Shown here: piece after piece, positions 4,614 through 59,332 of the stretch
Layout of the letters: the number at the start of each line of letters is the position of its first letter
How positions within the stretch are numbered: position 1 is the stretch's first letter
Source of the DNA: Candidatus Woesearchaeota archaeon
Lineage (GTDB): Archaea > Nanobdellota > Nanobdellia > SCGC-AAA011-G17 > VGLX01
Assembly: GCA_964428965.1 (NCBI GenBank)
Contig: CAYSAF010000003.1
Coordinates: forward strand, 7,272-71,271
DNA: 64,000 nt
Direction: 5' to 3'
Notes under the pieces: model-generated
What the model was told of the DNA's origin: nothing
The model's database searches: none
What the model saw: the letters and a program-made list of their open reading frames with translations, nothing else
Translations under genes and position numbers: made by a program

Positions 4614-4700
4614 TGCGCCGGCCGGGATTTGAACCCAGATGGTCAGCTAACTTCTCTAATGAATGGAAGGCTGAAATCATAGCCATTAGATCACCAGCGC
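4614..4700 (-). tRNA. tRNA-Gly(UCC) with a 15-nt canonical intron (37/38)
   Basis: The minus-strand read is GCGCTGG-T-G-ATCT-AATGGCTA-TGAT-T-TCAGC-CTTCCA-[TTCATTAGAGAAGTT]-A-GCTGA-CCAT-CTGGG-TTCAAAT-CCCGG-CCGGCGC-A. The acceptor and T-arm are clean, with U33 and anticodon UCC, and the mature length is 72 nt. Confidence 0.55.
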
Positions 4701-40475: not shown

Positions 40476-40588
40476 GGGCCTGTGGTCTAGTGGTTATGAT
40501 AGGAGTTAAAGACCTATAATACACATCACCCTTACAAAAATTAATTTAAGAGCGGTGGAGGTCCCCGGTTCGAATCCGGGCAGGCCCA
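40476..40588 (+). tRNA. tRNA-Val(UAC) with two introns (about 24 nt near position 26/27 and 16 nt at 37/38)
   Basis: The read is GGGCCTG-T-G-GTCT-AGTGGTTA-TGAT-A-[GGAGTTAAAGACCTATAATACACA]-TCACC-CTTACA-[AAAATTAATTTAAGAG]-C-GGTGG-AGGTC-CCCGG-TTCGAAT-CCGGG-CAGGCCC-A. The 5' part matches the archaeal tRNA-Val D-arm (GTGGTCTAGTGGTTATGA). Confidence 0.5.
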
Positions 40589-50075: not shown

Positions 50076-51563
50076 TTATTTTACCAGGTTTAAACCACAT
50101 CCTTCTAGCATTTTCTTTATCTTTTCTTCTTGCACCTCTTCTTGTGATATATTGCATAAGCATGCTAAATTCTTTCTCAGTCCTATCGATGTCCCTTCTG
50201 GTGTTTCTATTGCGCAAAGCCTTCCCCAGTGTGTTGGGTGCAGTTCCCTTGCTTCGAAGTTTTCTTGTGACACGCTCAATAATGAAACTACCCTTTGCAG
50301 GTGTGATATTGTTGCGAGGAAGTTTATTCTGTCTATGTTTTGGCTTATTCCCTTTCTTCCCCCCACCCAAGATCCTGTTGCCATCGCGCTTAAAACCCTT
50401 GATGTTAGTAGTTTGTCCCTGATTATGTTTTTGACCGATGAAAATTTCCCCCTCTTCACCAGTCTCTGGAAGTTGTACAGTATGTCATTTATGAGCACTC
50501 TTAAATTCATTCTGAAGAGTTCTGCCAGTAGGTCTCCTGATAGTTGTAGTTGTTTGTTCATGTAGTGGTCTTTGTCGCTTACTTGTACACCCTCTCTTGA
50601 TACCATCAGGAATTTCTTTACTAATTTACATAGATTGTACGCTTTTATCATTCTGTCTTTTGGGTTTGTTCCCAGGTGTGGTAAGAGGTACTTGTCGAGG
50701 TTTTCTCTTGTTTTTTCCACCTTTACCTCTCTCGGTTGTGTAATTCTTAATTTTTTTGCTATGAATTCTAGCGCGTCTTCTTCATTTTTTAGTTCCATGC
50801 TGTGGTATAAGTTTATGAAAACGTCGTCGTATTGTTTGTCTTTTGATATCACTTCTGTTATTTCCTGATCTTTCGTTAAGCCAAGTGCTTTTATCACTGC
50901 CACGATTGGTATTCTTTTGAATCTCGTGAAGCTTAGGTATATTATTCCGTCTTTCATCTGTTCCACAACATGGGGTATTCTGTACGGTCCCCTGGCTGAG
51001 AATAACTTGGCTGTGTACCTGCTCGGCCCTACTTTGTTTTCTTGTATGAACACCTTGTTTGATGCTAAGTCCTCAACTAAAATCAGGACTCTTTCATTTC
51101 CATTCAGTATGAAATAGCCGCCTGGGTCGTCTGGGTCCTCTCCGTGTTTTATCAGTTCTTCTCTGCTTAGGTTGTGTAAGTGGCAGTATTTTGATTTGAG
51201 CATTATCGGAAGTTTTCCTATTTTCTGTGTGAATGCTTCTCTCTGCACCCCGTCTATGTGTACGCTCACATCAACGTAAATGTCTGCAGAGTAACTTAGC
51301 TTTCTAATCCTCGCTTCATTGGGGTGTATGTCCCTTTGGCTTCCGTCAGCTTCTGTGATCTTTGGTTTGTTTACCGTTAGTTTTTCAAACTTTATTTTGT
51401 ATTCTTGCGCGTCGGGAGGTATTATTGCTGGCACCGCATCTCCCATCTCCTCAAGTATTTTGTGTATTTCCCTTTCCACAAAATTGTTGAAGCTTGCTAT
51501 GTTTGACTCTATCAAGGAGTGTTCTTCGAAGTACTTTTTTACGAGCAAGTTTTTTTCAGCCAT
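50076..51563 (-). CDS. rpoB2: DNA-directed RNA polymerase subunit B'' (Rpo2N, N-terminal half of split RpoB)
   Basis: It has RpoB N-terminal lobe/protrusion motifs, is 495 aa, and ends at the start of B'. Confidence 0.9.
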   Translation of the reverse strand: MAEKNLLVKKYFEEHSLIESNIASFNNFVEREIHKILEEMGDAVPAIIPPDAQEYKIKFEKLTVNKPKITEADGSQRDIHPNEARIRKLSYSADIYVDVSVHIDGVQREAFTQKIGKLPIMLKSKYCHLHNLSREELIKHGEDPDDPGGYFILNGNERVLILVEDLASNKVFIQENKVGPSRYTAKLFSARGPYRIPHVVEQMKDGIIYLSFTRFKRIPIVAVIKALGLTKDQEITEVISKDKQYDDVFINLYHSMELKNEEDALEFIAKKLRITQPREVKVEKTRENLDKYLLPHLGTNPKDRMIKAYNLCKLVKKFLMVSREGVQVSDKDHYMNKQLQLSGDLLAELFRMNLRVLINDILYNFQRLVKRGKFSSVKNIIRDKLLTSRVLSAMATGSWVGGRKGISQNIDRINFLATISHLQRVVSLLSVSQENFEARELHPTHWGRLCAIETPEGTSIGLRKNLACLCNISQEEVQEEKIKKMLEGCGLNLVK

Positions 51564-51804
51564 TTATTACCACCCTATAGAACAGGTATTCGCCTGCCGT
51601 TTGGCTTCTTCTCATTATCTTTATGACGTCGCCAGGCTTTGCATTTAATTCTTTTATTACAGGGTCACTTTTTTTTATGTTCGGTAGTTGTTTTAGAGAA
51701 ATGTTGTATTGCGTCAGTAGTTCTTGTACCTCTTCTTCTGTTAGCTTTATGTGTTTTGGTACGAAGGAATGTTTTGTGATGTCTACTTTTGTTTGGGCTT
51801 TCAT
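51556..51804 (-). CDS. rpoH: DNA-directed RNA polymerase subunit H (Rpb5 homolog)
   Basis: It has the HxLVPxHxxL block (HSFVPKHIKLTEEE) and the C-terminal GDVIKIMRRSQTAGEYLFYRVV. I placed the start at MKAQTK (51804); the longer ORF-track N-terminus overlaps the tRNA-Lys gene. Confidence 0.7.
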   Translation of the reverse strand: MKAQTKVDITKHSFVPKHIKLTEEEVQELLTQYNISLKQLPNIKKSDPVIKELNAKPGDVIKIMRRSQTAGEYLFYRVVING

Positions 51805-51821
51805 CTTGTTGTGATTATGAA

Positions 51822-51952
51822 TGGACCGGACGGGATTTGAACCCGCGACCACCTGATGTCTTTGCTTGGTTAAAAGTTTCACCTAAAATGATTATGATGC
51901 TAGTTTCTCCTCGATTTTTCAGGTGCTCTGTTCCAAGCTGAGCTACCGGTCC
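51822..51952 (-). tRNA. tRNA-Lys(UUU) candidate with a complex/double intron flanking the anticodon loop
   Basis: The minus-strand read is GGACCGG-TA-GCTC-AGCTTGGAACA-GAGC-A-CCTGA-[43 nt]-CTTTTAA-[13 nt]-TCAGG-TGGTC-GCGGG-TTCAAAT-CCCGT-CCGGTCC-A. The acceptor, D-arm, T-arm and anticodon stem are clean, and the exon order matches archaeal tRNA-Lys (CCTGA CTTTTAA TCAGG). Confidence 0.45.
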
Positions 51953-51970
51953 TCCAAAACGCCCTGACCG
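51953..51970. repeat. 18-bp direct repeat TCCAAAACGCCCTGACCG (copy A), duplicating the 3' end and trailer of tRNA-Asp
   Basis: The identical 18-mer occurs at 52022..52039, where it includes the acceptor 3' strand and discriminator of tRNA-Asp. The copies are 51 bp apart. Confidence 0.6.
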
Positions 51971-52028
51971 TACATCAGGCAATTTCTCTCACTCCCTACT
52001 TTCCCAGGGAGTTTGGGTTTTTCCAAAA

Positions 52029-52195
52029 CGCCCTGACCGGGACTTTCGATTGTGATTTTTTCGAACCCGGGTCGCGGCCTGACTGCGTTATGAGGCTTTT
52101 TCTTTCTTCTGCGCCTCTTCGCCTCGACAGGGCCGCATGATTGGCCTCCAGGCAAAATTTCTGTTTTGGATTAGGCCGGACTACACCATCAGGGC
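52029..52195 (-). tRNA. tRNA-Asp(GUC) with three introns (D-loop about 31 nt, anticodon 37/38 about 44 nt, T-loop 59/60 about 17 nt)
   Basis: The exons assemble to GCCCTGA-T-G-GTGT-AGTCCGGCCAA-TCAT-G-CGGCC-CTGTCG-A-GGCCG-CGAC-CCGGG-TTCGAAT-CCCGG-TCAGGGC-G, which is 75 nt. It matches the archaeal tRNA-Asp/Glu GGTGTAG...GGCCAATCAT signature, and all stems are Watson-Crick. Confidence 0.5.
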
Positions 52196-52442
52196 ATCAA
52201 TCTTTCTAAACAACAATTTTTTGTTGTTTATTTTGTGATTTGTTTGGCAATTCTCTGTTTTTTGAGTCTCTGCTGCCTATAGAAAGATTTTGTCATCGCT
52301 TATTTGGGATTTTTTGAAGGTATATAAACTTTTCTATTTCAGATATTCAGAACTATTTCTGTCTGTTTACACCAACTTTTAGTTATAGGGTTAAAATAAT
52401 ATATAAATAATGTTATACTGTAGTATATATTTAAAGAATTTC

Positions 52443-53851: not shown

Positions 53852-54000
53852 TTCTAAATCCCACCTCCCAAACACAACCAAAAATGTTCGAGTCTGTGCC
53901 TACTTGTATTTTTAATAATATCTAATCATCATGCTAGCCACAATTTTTTTATTGGCTCAGCGAAATTCAGGACAGAATCTGATAAGCGAAAAGAGATAGC

Positions 54001-55681: not shown

Positions 55682-55808
55682 TCCCACCTCCCGGACTCGA
55701 ACCGGGAACATCTCGGTATCGGCTGACTATTTTTCATACATAGCCTTTCTCAAGGCCTAGTCGAATAGTATGCTACAGCCGAGTGCTCTACCGTTGAGCT
55801 AAGGTGGG
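55682..55808 (-). tRNA. tRNA-Tyr(GUA) with an intron of about 53 nt at the canonical position
   Basis: The read is CCCACCT-TA-GCTC-AACGGTA-GAGC-A-CTCGG-CTGTAG-[53 nt]-A-CCGAG-ATGTT-CCCGG-TTCGAGT-CCGGG-AGGTGGG-A. All stems are Watson-Crick, with U33 and anticodon GUA. Confidence 0.6.
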
Positions 55809-58408: not shown

Positions 58409-59332
58409 TCATGATCTTATTTCCAGTATGCTTTCTGTCTTCCCCCTGTTCACTATCTCTGTTCCTATCCCCCTTCCTATGTTATAGTAAGATTCTGCTG
58501 ACAGTCTTCCTAGCATGTCTAGTAGTCCTTTCTTTTCCTCATACTTTATTAATTTTGCTTCTGTCAGGTTTGCCATCTGTTTTGTTATGTTTATTGCCAA
58601 CTCTTTTCCTCCTATGTAGTCCACCATTTTCAGGTCATAGGCCTCAGTTCCGAGGTATATGCCTGCATTGCTTATCTCTTTTATTGTTTTGTTATCAAGG
58701 TTTCTGTTCTTTTTTACTTCTTCCAGGAAGTATGCCTGTATCTTGTCTATTTTTTCTTGAAGCAGCCTTCTTTCTTCATCTGTTAGTTCCCTGAACGGGC
58801 TTCCTGCTTCTTTGTATTTTCCGGATTTGAGTTCTTCATAGCTCACCCCGTATTTTTCCATGAGTCCTGAGAACTCTAGGTAAGAGCTTGTCACCCCTAT
58901 GCTTCCTGTTATAGACATCTCGTCTGCAACGATTTTGTCTGCTGCTGACGCAACCCAGTACGCCCCTGATGCTCCCACCTCCCTGATGAGTGCCACTGTT
59001 GGTTTTTGTGTTTTTTTCACAGCTTCGGCAATTTCCTTCCCAGCCATTACTGTCCCACCACCTGAGTTTATTTCCAGTATTATTCCCTTTACGTCAGGGT
59101 CTTTTTCTGCTTGCTCTATGAAGTTCACTATGGTTTTTGATGATGTTCCTGTTTCTCCTAATAACGATTCGGTTTTGTCTCCTGCTAGGAACCCTGTTAG
59201 GGGTATTACTGCTATTTTGTTGCTTAGTGATGTCCCCTCGAATTTTAGTAGGTTTGATAGTGAGAAGCTTACCAGCCAGAGTACTGCTATTACAAGTACT
59301 GCTATTCCTATCTTTTTTCTTGCTTCGTTCAT
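58409..59332 (-). CDS. sppA: Signal peptide peptidase SppA (36K type; ClpP/crotonase fold)
   Basis: It has an N-terminal TM, the SppA motifs (IILEINSGGGTVMAG, SITGSIGV) and the catalytic Ser/Lys region. Confidence 0.7.
   Translation of the reverse strand: MNEARKKIGIAVLVIAVLWLVSFSLSNLLKFEGTSLSNKIAVIPLTGFLAGDKTESLLGETGTSSKTIVNFIEQAEKDPDVKGIILEINSGGGTVMAGKEIAEAVKKTQKPTVALIREVGASGAYWVASAADKIVADEMSITGSIGVTSSYLEFSGLMEKYGVSYEELKSGKYKEAGSPFRELTDEERRLLQEKIDKIQAYFLEEVKKNRNLDNKTIKEISNAGIYLGTEAYDLKMVDYIGGKELAINITKQMANLTEAKLIKYEEKKGLLDMLGRLSAESYYNIGRGIGTEIVNRGKTESILEIRS

Follow-up and report, generated by a model that had tools for sequence, protein, structure and literature searches.

An intron-rich tRNA-Asp/tRNA-Lys gene pair ahead of rpoH and an apparently young duplication of the tRNA-Asp 3′ end in a Woesearchaeota-type archaeon

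Transfer RNA (tRNA) genes with several introns are known from Thermoproteales and from further archaea whose splicing endonucleases have a broad specificity (summarized in PMC5829648). Two adjacent genes for tRNA-Asp(GUC) and tRNA-Lys(UUU), located in a stretch of 64,000 nucleotides (the window; contig CAYSAF010000003.1 of assembly GCA_964428965.1), are of the same kind. Like the multi-intron genes of Thermoproteales, they contain short introns at the canonical position 37/38 as well as in the D-loop, at 30/31 and at 59/60, which are bounded by bulge-helix-bulge (BHB) motifs and are missed by standard tRNA finders. Here we describe the structure of both genes together with a 69-bp insertion, including one copy of an 18-bp repeat, that separates them. 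The host of the window is not a crenarchaeon as in the case of Thermoproteales but a Woesearchaeota-type DPANN archaeon with a GC content of about 39%.

A close parallel is the pre-tRNA-Glu(UUC) of Methanopyrus kandleri, which carries a D-loop intron with an HBh′ motif at position 20b/21 besides a canonical intron and whose cleavage was shown biochemically (PMC5829648). The tRNA-Asp gene of the window likewise combines a relaxed D-loop intron at nearly the same position with a canonical intron at 37/38 in one gene; unlike tRNA-Glu it has a third intron in the T-loop, and the cleavage of its precursor is a prediction. The survey of 46 archaea by Kaneta et al. (2018), which included one Woesearchaeota genome, associates the α4-type endonucleases of DPANN archaea that possess an “L3” loop with a marked rise in disrupted tRNA genes, and takes incomplete tRNA sets to imply undetected disrupted genes (PMC5829648, in the sections drawn on here). 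The tRNA-Asp gene of the window, from the same superphylum, is an example of such an undetected gene. Those sections give genome-level proportions and do not describe this locus, its linkage to rpoH or the turnover of its introns. Apparently missing tRNAs were encountered again in a 2026 preprint on complete Nanobdellota genomes. The multi-intron tRNA pair is therefore not new in kind, disruption of tRNA genes being on record for the host group.

Both tRNA genes are encoded on the minus strand, tRNA-Asp at 52029-52195 and tRNA-Lys at 51822-51952, and the coordinates given for them in an earlier note on this DNA, made from the sequence alone, were all correct. ARAGORN found no tRNA in the 64-kb window, though five tRNA genes are present, and the Rfam tRNA model detected four intron-bearing genes. 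The RF00005 match to tRNA-Lys spanned the whole gene with a score of 48.4 bits and contained a 62-nt insert in the anticodon region. The unspliced tRNA-Asp gene was missed by ARAGORN and also by Rfam even at E ≤ 10. After removal of the introns in silico, ARAGORN called the products as tRNA-Asp(gtc) of 75 nt and tRNA-Lys(ttt) of 76 nt with normal cloverleaves, which confirms that the 167-nt Asp gene carries insertions in the D-loop, at 37/38 and at 59/60 as the earlier note had proposed. Each spliced product yields a canonical cloverleaf in which the anticodon is the expected one and its 7-nt loop includes U33.

A BHB motif of standard geometry has two 3-nt bulges, of which the 5′ one comprises the final two bases of the exon and the initial base of the intron, and the 3′ one the final two intron bases and the base that opens the following exon; the central helix arises by pairing of intron bases n-5 to n-2 with the four exon bases that precede the 5′ bulge. 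All registers compatible with an unchanged mature sequence were scored for this geometry. Four of the five junction pairs fitted a 4-bp central helix and the 3-nt bulge register, and the D-loop intron was relaxed. At Asp 37/38, Asp 59/60 and Lys 30/31 exactly one register gave a complete 4-bp central helix, and strict central helix and bulges were present at Asp 37/38, Asp 59/60 and Lys 37/38. The BHB motifs to be expected at the exon-intron junctions were found, strict or relaxed, at all five of them (in the D-loop after a shift of 4 nt). Moreover, the motif of Lys intron 1 with its AAA bulge and the Asp T-loop motif appeared in minimum free energy (MFE) folds of the unspliced precursors.

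Related loci for comparison were collected by a RpoB″ search, which gave 80 loci, all from genome bins of Woesearchaeota, Nanoarchaeota or “Nanoarchaeia”, the nearest having 90-92% protein identity. Look-ups of RpoH homologs added L084-L087, of which L084-L086 cover the whole locus, and six close lineages that cover it (L003, L004, L005, L084, L085 and L086) were available. Comparisons of exons and introns were based on alignments of 5-8 lineages. The exons of both tRNAs were almost invariant in the six close lineages, and substitutions and indels were concentrated in the proposed introns. The introns varied freely except where they pair, as seen from a compensatory hairpin in an Asp intron and from covariation in the T-loop intron.

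The tRNA-Asp(GUC) gene comprises four exons and three introns within its 167 nt and does not encode the CCA end. Exon 1 (52172..52195) covers positions 1 to about 21 and ends with ...GGCCUA, its junction being taken from the BHB register. Intron 1 (52141..52171, 31 nt) interrupts the D-loop at about 21/22 with a relaxed BHB composed of the central helix GGCC/GGCC, the inner helix UCCA/UGGA and the bulges UA|A and AA|U, with no adjacent outer helix. The D-loop insertion itself had been recognized in the earlier note, and only its junctions had to be revised. The junctions proposed there gave 0-3 central pairs at every equivalent register and were rejected; the cuts fit 4 nt further 3′ (...GGCCUA | AUCC...GGCCAA | UCAUG), by which one mature base is changed. 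This shift gives a mature ending ...GGCCUAUCAUG, for which the ARAGORN call remains tRNA-Asp. The intron-less tRNA-Asp genes in related loci all end with ..CUAUCAUG or ..UUAUCAUG, have the D-loop pattern ..GG(C/U)(C/U)UAUCAUG, and in no case show the ..CAAUCAUG that follows from the unshifted junctions. Compensatory changes preserve the inner helix of this intron as UCUUC/GGGGA in L006, and the same D-loop site is occupied in L015 by a shorter intron with the central helix GGCU/GGCU.

Exon 2 (52125..52140) extends from the 3′ strand of the D-stem to position 37 and includes the anticodon GUC, and exon 3 (52060..52080) extends from position 38 to 59; both are invariant in the relatives. They are separated by intron 2 (52081..52124, 44 nt) at the canonical position 37/38, which has a strict BHB with the central helix CUGU/GCAG, the bulges CG|A and UC|A and the anticodon stem as the outer helix, with 7 outer pairs. 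In its internal hairpin GAGGC/GCCUC, two pairs show compensatory G-C to A-U changes among the relatives. Intron 3 (52043..52059, 17 nt) lies in the T-loop at 59/60 and is a BHB with loop, built from the central helix UUCG/CGAA, the bulges AA|A and AG|U and the T stem as the outer helix (four central and five outer pairs); its helix, its 3′ bulge and the T stem are visible in the MFE precursor fold. Exon 4 (52029..52042) completes the tRNA from position 60 to the discriminator G73. T-loop introns that keep the 4-bp central helix were counted in 41 entries of the related loci, a number limited to entries with a complete central helix since the wider candidate list was over-permissive; they covary between UUCA/UGAA and UUCG/CGAA, and their typical bulges are AA|A and AG|U. 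Finally, all 38 modeled pairs of the acceptor stem and of the outer and BHB helices were paired in each of the five aligned Asp sequences.

The tRNA-Lys(UUU) gene (51822..51952, 131 nt) contains two introns. Intron 1 (51878..51919, 42 nt) is inserted at 30/31, or equivalently at 31/32, with a relaxed BHB, and intron 2 (51858..51870, 13 nt) is inserted at the canonical position 37/38. The two inserts had been given as 43 and 13 nt; two introns and the length of the second were borne out, and the first is 42 nt. For intron 1, the outer helix AGAG/CUUU, the central helix CACC/GGUG, the 3′ bulge AA|A and the inner helix AAAAU/AUUUU were identified. Its 5′ site UG|A falls in a 3 x 1 loop or in a continuous helix and is a non-ideal bulge. 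The MFE precursor fold contains the long helix as well as the outer helix and the AAA bulge, the inner helix is kept as AAAAG/CUUUU by a compensatory change in L004, and many of the farther loci have an intron at the same 30/31 site with CACU/GGUG. The 10-bp helix reported earlier within this insert exists and corresponds to the BHB of intron 1, but it uses exon bases (CACCUG) and does not lie wholly within the insert. Intron 2 has the central helix CUUU/AAAG and the bulges UA|A and AC|A. Its central helix is complete at two adjacent registers, of which the canonical 37/38 one was used. The Lys introns can be written at 30/31 and 37/38, and only these registers give BHB geometry. A single Lys intron of 55 nt was rejected by direct reading, as no placement leaves U33 in a 7-nt loop, and two Lys introns are therefore required.

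Taken together, the sequence comparisons indicate that both genes are functional, intron-rich archaeal tRNA genes. The multi-intron structure proposed in the earlier note was upheld, apart from small corrections of junctions, by the BHB-type junctions and the conserved exons; the lineage is DPANN/Woesearchaeota and not Thermoproteales. The Asp-Lys pair would probably be transcribed as one precursor, from which the archaeal tRNA-splicing endonuclease would excise the introns by cutting BHB or relaxed BHB motifs between the second and third base of the 3-nt bulges. Joining of the exons would be the task of an RNA ligase and trimming of the ends that of RNase P and RNase Z, and the addition of CCA would complete the tRNAs. 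The two Lys motifs share bases, CUUU being both the partner of the outer helix of intron 1 and a strand of the central helix of intron 2; intron 1 is therefore probably removed before intron 2, the anticodon stem then serving as the outer helix of intron 2. Unlike the gene structures, the enzymes, the splicing order and the co-transcription are inferred.

The region between the two genes is occupied by an insertion. Two exact copies, and no more, of the 18-mer TCCAAAACGCCCTGACCG are present, one at 51953-51970 and the other at 52022-52039, as had been noted before, and the match cannot be extended in either direction. By arithmetic, about 1e-4 exact 18-mer direct repeats within 100 nt are expected by chance per 64 kb. 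On the minus strand, the first copy R1 (52022..52039, CGGUCAGGGCGUUUUGGA) consists of the last 11 nt of tRNA-Asp and the 7-nt trailer UUUUGGA. It is followed by the 51-nt insert X (51971..52021), which is unique to the lineage of the window, and by the second copy R2 (51953..51970), which abuts position +1 of tRNA-Lys and restores its native 7-nt leader UUUUGGA. X contains an imperfect inverted copy of the repeat (52005-52017, CCCAAACUCCCUG, X positions 5-17), the hairpin ACUCCCUG/UAGGGAGU (52005-52012 with 51991-51998) and the motif GCCUGA (51975-51980), which pairs with R2. Of the two hairpins previously placed within the 51 bp, both form, namely ACTCCCT/AGGGAGT and, in the MFE fold, CCUGAU/GUCAGG; the 3′ arm of the latter sits in the repeat copy.

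In the six close lineages the repeat is present as one copy and tRNA-Asp is separated from tRNA-Lys by the same 7 nt (...GUCCCGGUCAGGGCGUUUUGGA|GGACCGG..., that is Asp-TTTTGGA-Lys), and in farther Woesearchaeota the distance is 2-7 nt. The 69-bp insertion, comprising 51 bp and one 18-bp repeat, is thus the derived state and, judged from these alignments, is young and lineage-specific. The comparison with related loci suggested in the earlier note has in this way established, by an empty site with a single copy in six lineages, that the duplication flanks an insertion. Exact look-ups of RpoH and RpoB″ retrieved only one other contig bearing it, a separate ENA assembly that has the same insertion with 2 mismatches in 661 nt. 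An origin of the duplicated 18-mer in an assembly artefact is contradicted by this independent assembly. The related proposal that the 69 nt are a fourth intron or an alternative 3′ exon of tRNA-Asp would be compatible with the fact that either copy could complete the acceptor stem, R2 being preferred in the MFE fold. However, R1 already completes the tRNA, and a BHB flanked by helices was not obtained at any of the 19 possible registers. Artefact and fourth intron alike are hardly credible.

The composition of X bears on its origin. Between the two direct copies, the X stretch CCCAAACTCCCTG matches the repeat core CAGGGCGUUUUGG in reverse complement at 11 of 13 positions (shuffle p = 0.005); this core takes in trailer bases outside the tRNA. 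UAGGGAGU represents a degenerate direct copy of the repeat that pairs with the inverted copy. About 27 of the 51 bases of X are readable as alternating direct and inverted repeat modules, from which much of the structure of the spacer arises. A simple tandem duplication was excluded, because X has no significant similarity to the 51 nt upstream of R nor to the Asp gene, the flanks or the Lys region on either strand, a conclusion that takes into account that the event must be young. Tandem inversion duplications have been studied in Salmonella, and quasi-palindrome mutation is their small-scale counterpart. Template switching at short palindromes or quasi-palindromes produces inverted triplications and tandem inversion duplications (PMC4689423, PMC3820800). 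The order direct-inverted-direct of one segment at a site rich in inverted repeats resembles such rearrangements, from which the insertion differs by its size of tens of bases instead of kilobases, by the imperfect inverted copy and by extra bases without explanation. From this sequence pattern we tentatively favor, with rather less than even confidence, a local template-switch duplication as the source of X and R2 over an integration scar. A polymerase would switch template at the palindrome-rich tRNA 3′ end and then return, leaving direct-inverted-direct copies of the target like a miniature tandem inversion duplication. The insertion would have been tolerated because an intact Asp 3′ end and the native Lys leader were both regenerated, and the 69-bp rearrangement is probably non-functional.

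Similar duplications of tRNA 3′ ends were found in five further genes, L034-Asp, L034-Lys, L058-Lys, L069-Lys and L072-Lys. Among 180 tRNA-like genes, 5 had a second, exact occurrence of the last 8 nt of the tRNA no more than 170 nt downstream, whereas about 0.47 were expected by chance and none was seen in three control classes; L034-Asp, with one mismatch, adds to these. With the window, the pattern of a tRNA end, an inverted copy, a short hairpin and an identical tRNA end extends to six Asp or Lys genes in five lineages. In L034 (2225-2460, a Nanoarchaeota bin), Asp and Lys are each followed by an insert of 41-43 nt, behind which their own 3′ end is repeated. The two inserts start with GCGAAGC, a sequence that forms an unusually stable DNA mini-hairpin, and are palindromes centered on GC-GAA-GC. 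The insert of L034-Lys contains AUGGAGCGGAUGG, to be compared with the exact complement AUGGACCGGACGG, and its inverted copy matches at 11 of 13 positions (p = 0.01). In L034-Asp the first and the second copy differ by one base (C/T), and an inverted copy matching by eye at 11 of 14 positions gave 7/8 in the scored local alignment, which was not significant (p = 0.10). Duplications of the Lys 3′ end of 13, 22 and 30 nt with structured inserts of 76-113 nt lie between Lys and rpoH in L058 (2622-2723), L069 (2541-2672) and L072 (2522-2694). A different arrangement is seen in L065 (about 2540-2590), where the Asp-Lys spacer consists of tandem units of ~21 nt, each opening with the tRNA-Asp end and trailer (GGGCGTTTCA...).

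The earlier note had suggested that the repeats are an attL/attR-style scar or else a processing element. In the first of these explanations a virus or plasmid carrying the tRNA-Asp 3′ end would have integrated, with R1 as attL and R2 as attR, and would later have been deleted down to 51 bp. Integrated mobile elements do leave partial tRNA copies in archaea, which are well documented (PMC9897764), and the window resembles these in having a second tRNA 3′ end downstream of an intact gene. That part of the claim stands: the DNA between the direct repeats, which contain a tRNA 3′ end, is missing from the empty site of the relatives. The second copy of L072 extends as a degenerate tRNA 3′ half, the one-base difference in L034-Asp is what host and element copies might show, the repeat lengths vary from 13 to 30 nt like att identity segments, and within the window 11 nt of the 3′ end of the tRNA-Tyr gene (55682) are found again 1.8 kb downstream. 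The involvement of an element was not corroborated, however. Unlike the published partial copies, those of the window are associated with no element, integrase or cargo, the 51 bp of X leave no room for an open reading frame (ORF) or an integrase, and only 41-113 bp separate the copies in all six cases. Nor was an integrase encountered among the 20 of 59 window ORFs scanned with Pfam. No exact match to a 20-mer of X or to the 18-mer was found in IMG/VR, so that R gained no support there as a viral attP. An exact-match scan of JGI metagenomes also found no X, a weak result as the scan missed the 22-mer GTCCCGGTCAGGGCGTTTTGGA that is present in L084 and L086. Furthermore, X is partly an inverted copy of the target including its non-tRNA trailer, which is not needed in the arm of an element, and integration followed by near-total deletion would have to be assumed every time. 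An integration scar is therefore considered unlikely.

A small non-autonomous transposable element with an 18-bp target-site duplication was also considered. A duplicated target flanks the insert, the relatives have empty sites, and the two inserts of L034 share their first bases GCGAAGC..AUGGA. Yet X has no terminal inverted repeats, its 51 bp would be very short, no second copy of X exists in the 64-kb window or in 82 loci, and the length of the duplication ranges between cases from 13 to 30 nt, unlike the footprint of a transposase. This origin appears very improbable.

The 76-nt spacer formed by the insertion folds as RNA into three hairpins with -26.3 kcal/mol (z = -3.3), more stable than all 200 of 200 shuffles. 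It could be a selected RNA element, serving as a processing signal, as a separator of the pre-tRNAs or as a small stable RNA. Hairpin-forming Asp-Lys spacers are common in farther Woesearchaeota (L064, L068, L070, L071, L075, L076 and L081), the pattern recurs at Lys-rpoH junctions, and the second copy is identical to the first within each lineage even where the tRNA sequence changes (L069 vs. L072; in L034-Asp it differs by one base). On the other hand, the insertion is absent from the six close relatives and is carried by only two near-identical sequences, hence without covariation support, and Rfam gave nothing credible for the spacer at E ≤ 10. The hairpins are, moreover, an automatic outcome of an inverted duplication. 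In the MFE fold of spliced Asp, spacer and Lys, the Asp 5′ acceptor strand pairs with R2 and not with R1, a folding liability, whereas the acceptor stems of both cloverleaves are formed when the spacer is the ancestral one of 7 nt. Owing to this mispairing in the dicistron, an insulating role of the spacer between the two tRNAs was rejected. Selection for such an element is judged decidedly improbable.

That the duplication in the window is one instance of a recurrent, specific process at Woesearchaeota tRNA 3′ ends seems distinctly doubtful, although the palindromic form of both L034 inserts and the identity of the second copy to the first in the various lineages would suit a process other than random error. 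If so, the pattern could mark a novel mobile or repair activity targeting tRNA ends, or a selected acceptor-stem-like minihelix for the processing of a tRNA-tRNA-rpoH precursor. As the overall explanation, a functional multi-intron tRNA pair combined with a young 69-bp insertion arising from a local error is regarded as rather probable. Several observations speak against it. The MFE precursor folds do not show every BHB, the motifs of the Asp D-loop intron and of Lys intron 1 are relaxed, and no gene for a splicing endonuclease or ligase was found among the 20 of 59 window ORFs scanned with Pfam. As for the insertion, the inverted copies are imperfect although R1 and R2 are exactly identical, about 24 of the 51 bases of X are without a detectable local source, and three of the six cases have no significant inverted copy, besides the non-significant score of L034-Asp. 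The second copy of L072 is prolonged upstream by a degenerate T arm and a strand of the anticodon stem, similar to an integration site. Taken alone the 69-bp insertion is minor. The recurrence of 3′-end duplications suggests that in reduced genomes small rearrangements have hot spots at tRNA 3′ ends, might merit a wider survey, and cautions that a partial tRNA copy need not signal the past integration of a mobile element.

Downstream of tRNA-Lys, the gene rpoH (51556..51804, minus strand) is the first of a cluster of RNA polymerase genes (rpoH, rpoB″ and rpoB′). Pfam domains RNA_pol_Rpb5_C and Rpb2 were assigned to the gene calls next to the tRNA pair, and rpoB is split. The Asp-Lys pair precedes rpoH in the window and in 56 of the 80 scanned loci, so that Asp-Lys-rpoH is a conserved cluster of the host group with the tRNAs as its first two genes. 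The intron sets vary widely among these loci, the Asp gene ranging in length from 72 to 316 nt, and the locus offers a natural series for the gain and loss of introns at the D-loop, 30/31, 37/38 and 59/60. The 3′ end of tRNA-Lys is separated from the start codon of rpoH by 17 nt (51805-51821). This gap and the 7-nt gap between Asp and Lys in the relatives leave no space for separate promoters. Both tRNAs and the RNA polymerase genes may accordingly share one transcript, the 5′ end of the mRNA being generated by tRNA processing. A sequence AAAAGTTTATATA (52320-52333) resembling a B recognition element and TATA box lies ~125 nt upstream of tRNA-Asp and is kept in the relatives. In the ~100 nt between this TATA-like box and tRNA-Asp (52200-52310, minus strand), a block ..AAAAAATCCCAAATAAGCGATGACAAAATCTTTCTA.. 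without a match in Rfam is nearly identical in L084-L086, even where the introns have diverged strongly.

The structure of the locus has consequences for annotation. The longest rpoH ORF (51556-51882, minus strand; 108 aa, GTG start) overlaps tRNA-Lys, and the JGI annotation of a relative (protein P0005, locus L084) contains a likewise over-extended RpoH of 110 aa. The true start of rpoH is likely the ATG that gives 82 aa. Undetected tRNAs thus lead to N-terminal over-extension of the adjoining gene, in this case by gene callers that stretch rpoH over a missed tRNA-Lys. Moreover, since neither ARAGORN nor Rfam detects the three-intron tRNA-Asp, the genomes of this group will seem short of tRNAs, which fits the “missing” tRNAs published for DPANN genomes.

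All five tRNA genes found in the window have introns, at least nine altogether. By direct reading, tRNA-Gly(UCC) (4614-4700, minus strand) has one intron, tRNA-Val(UAC) (40476-40588, plus strand) has introns in the D-loop and the anticodon loop, and tRNA-Tyr(GUA) (55682-55808, minus strand) contains about 54 extra bases. A 14-nt copy of the Tyr 3′ end at 58973 was dismissed, since it lies inside a gene for an S49 peptidase and is probably due to chance. A further copy of the final 11 nt of the tRNA-Tyr gene (GGGAGGTGGGA, 55682-55692) lies in an intergenic position at 53859-53869 (minus strand). With no integrase between them, these two Tyr-end copies bracket a methyltransferase gene and a gene for a TrmB-family regulator, and the repeat may mark an old integration or rearrangement boundary.

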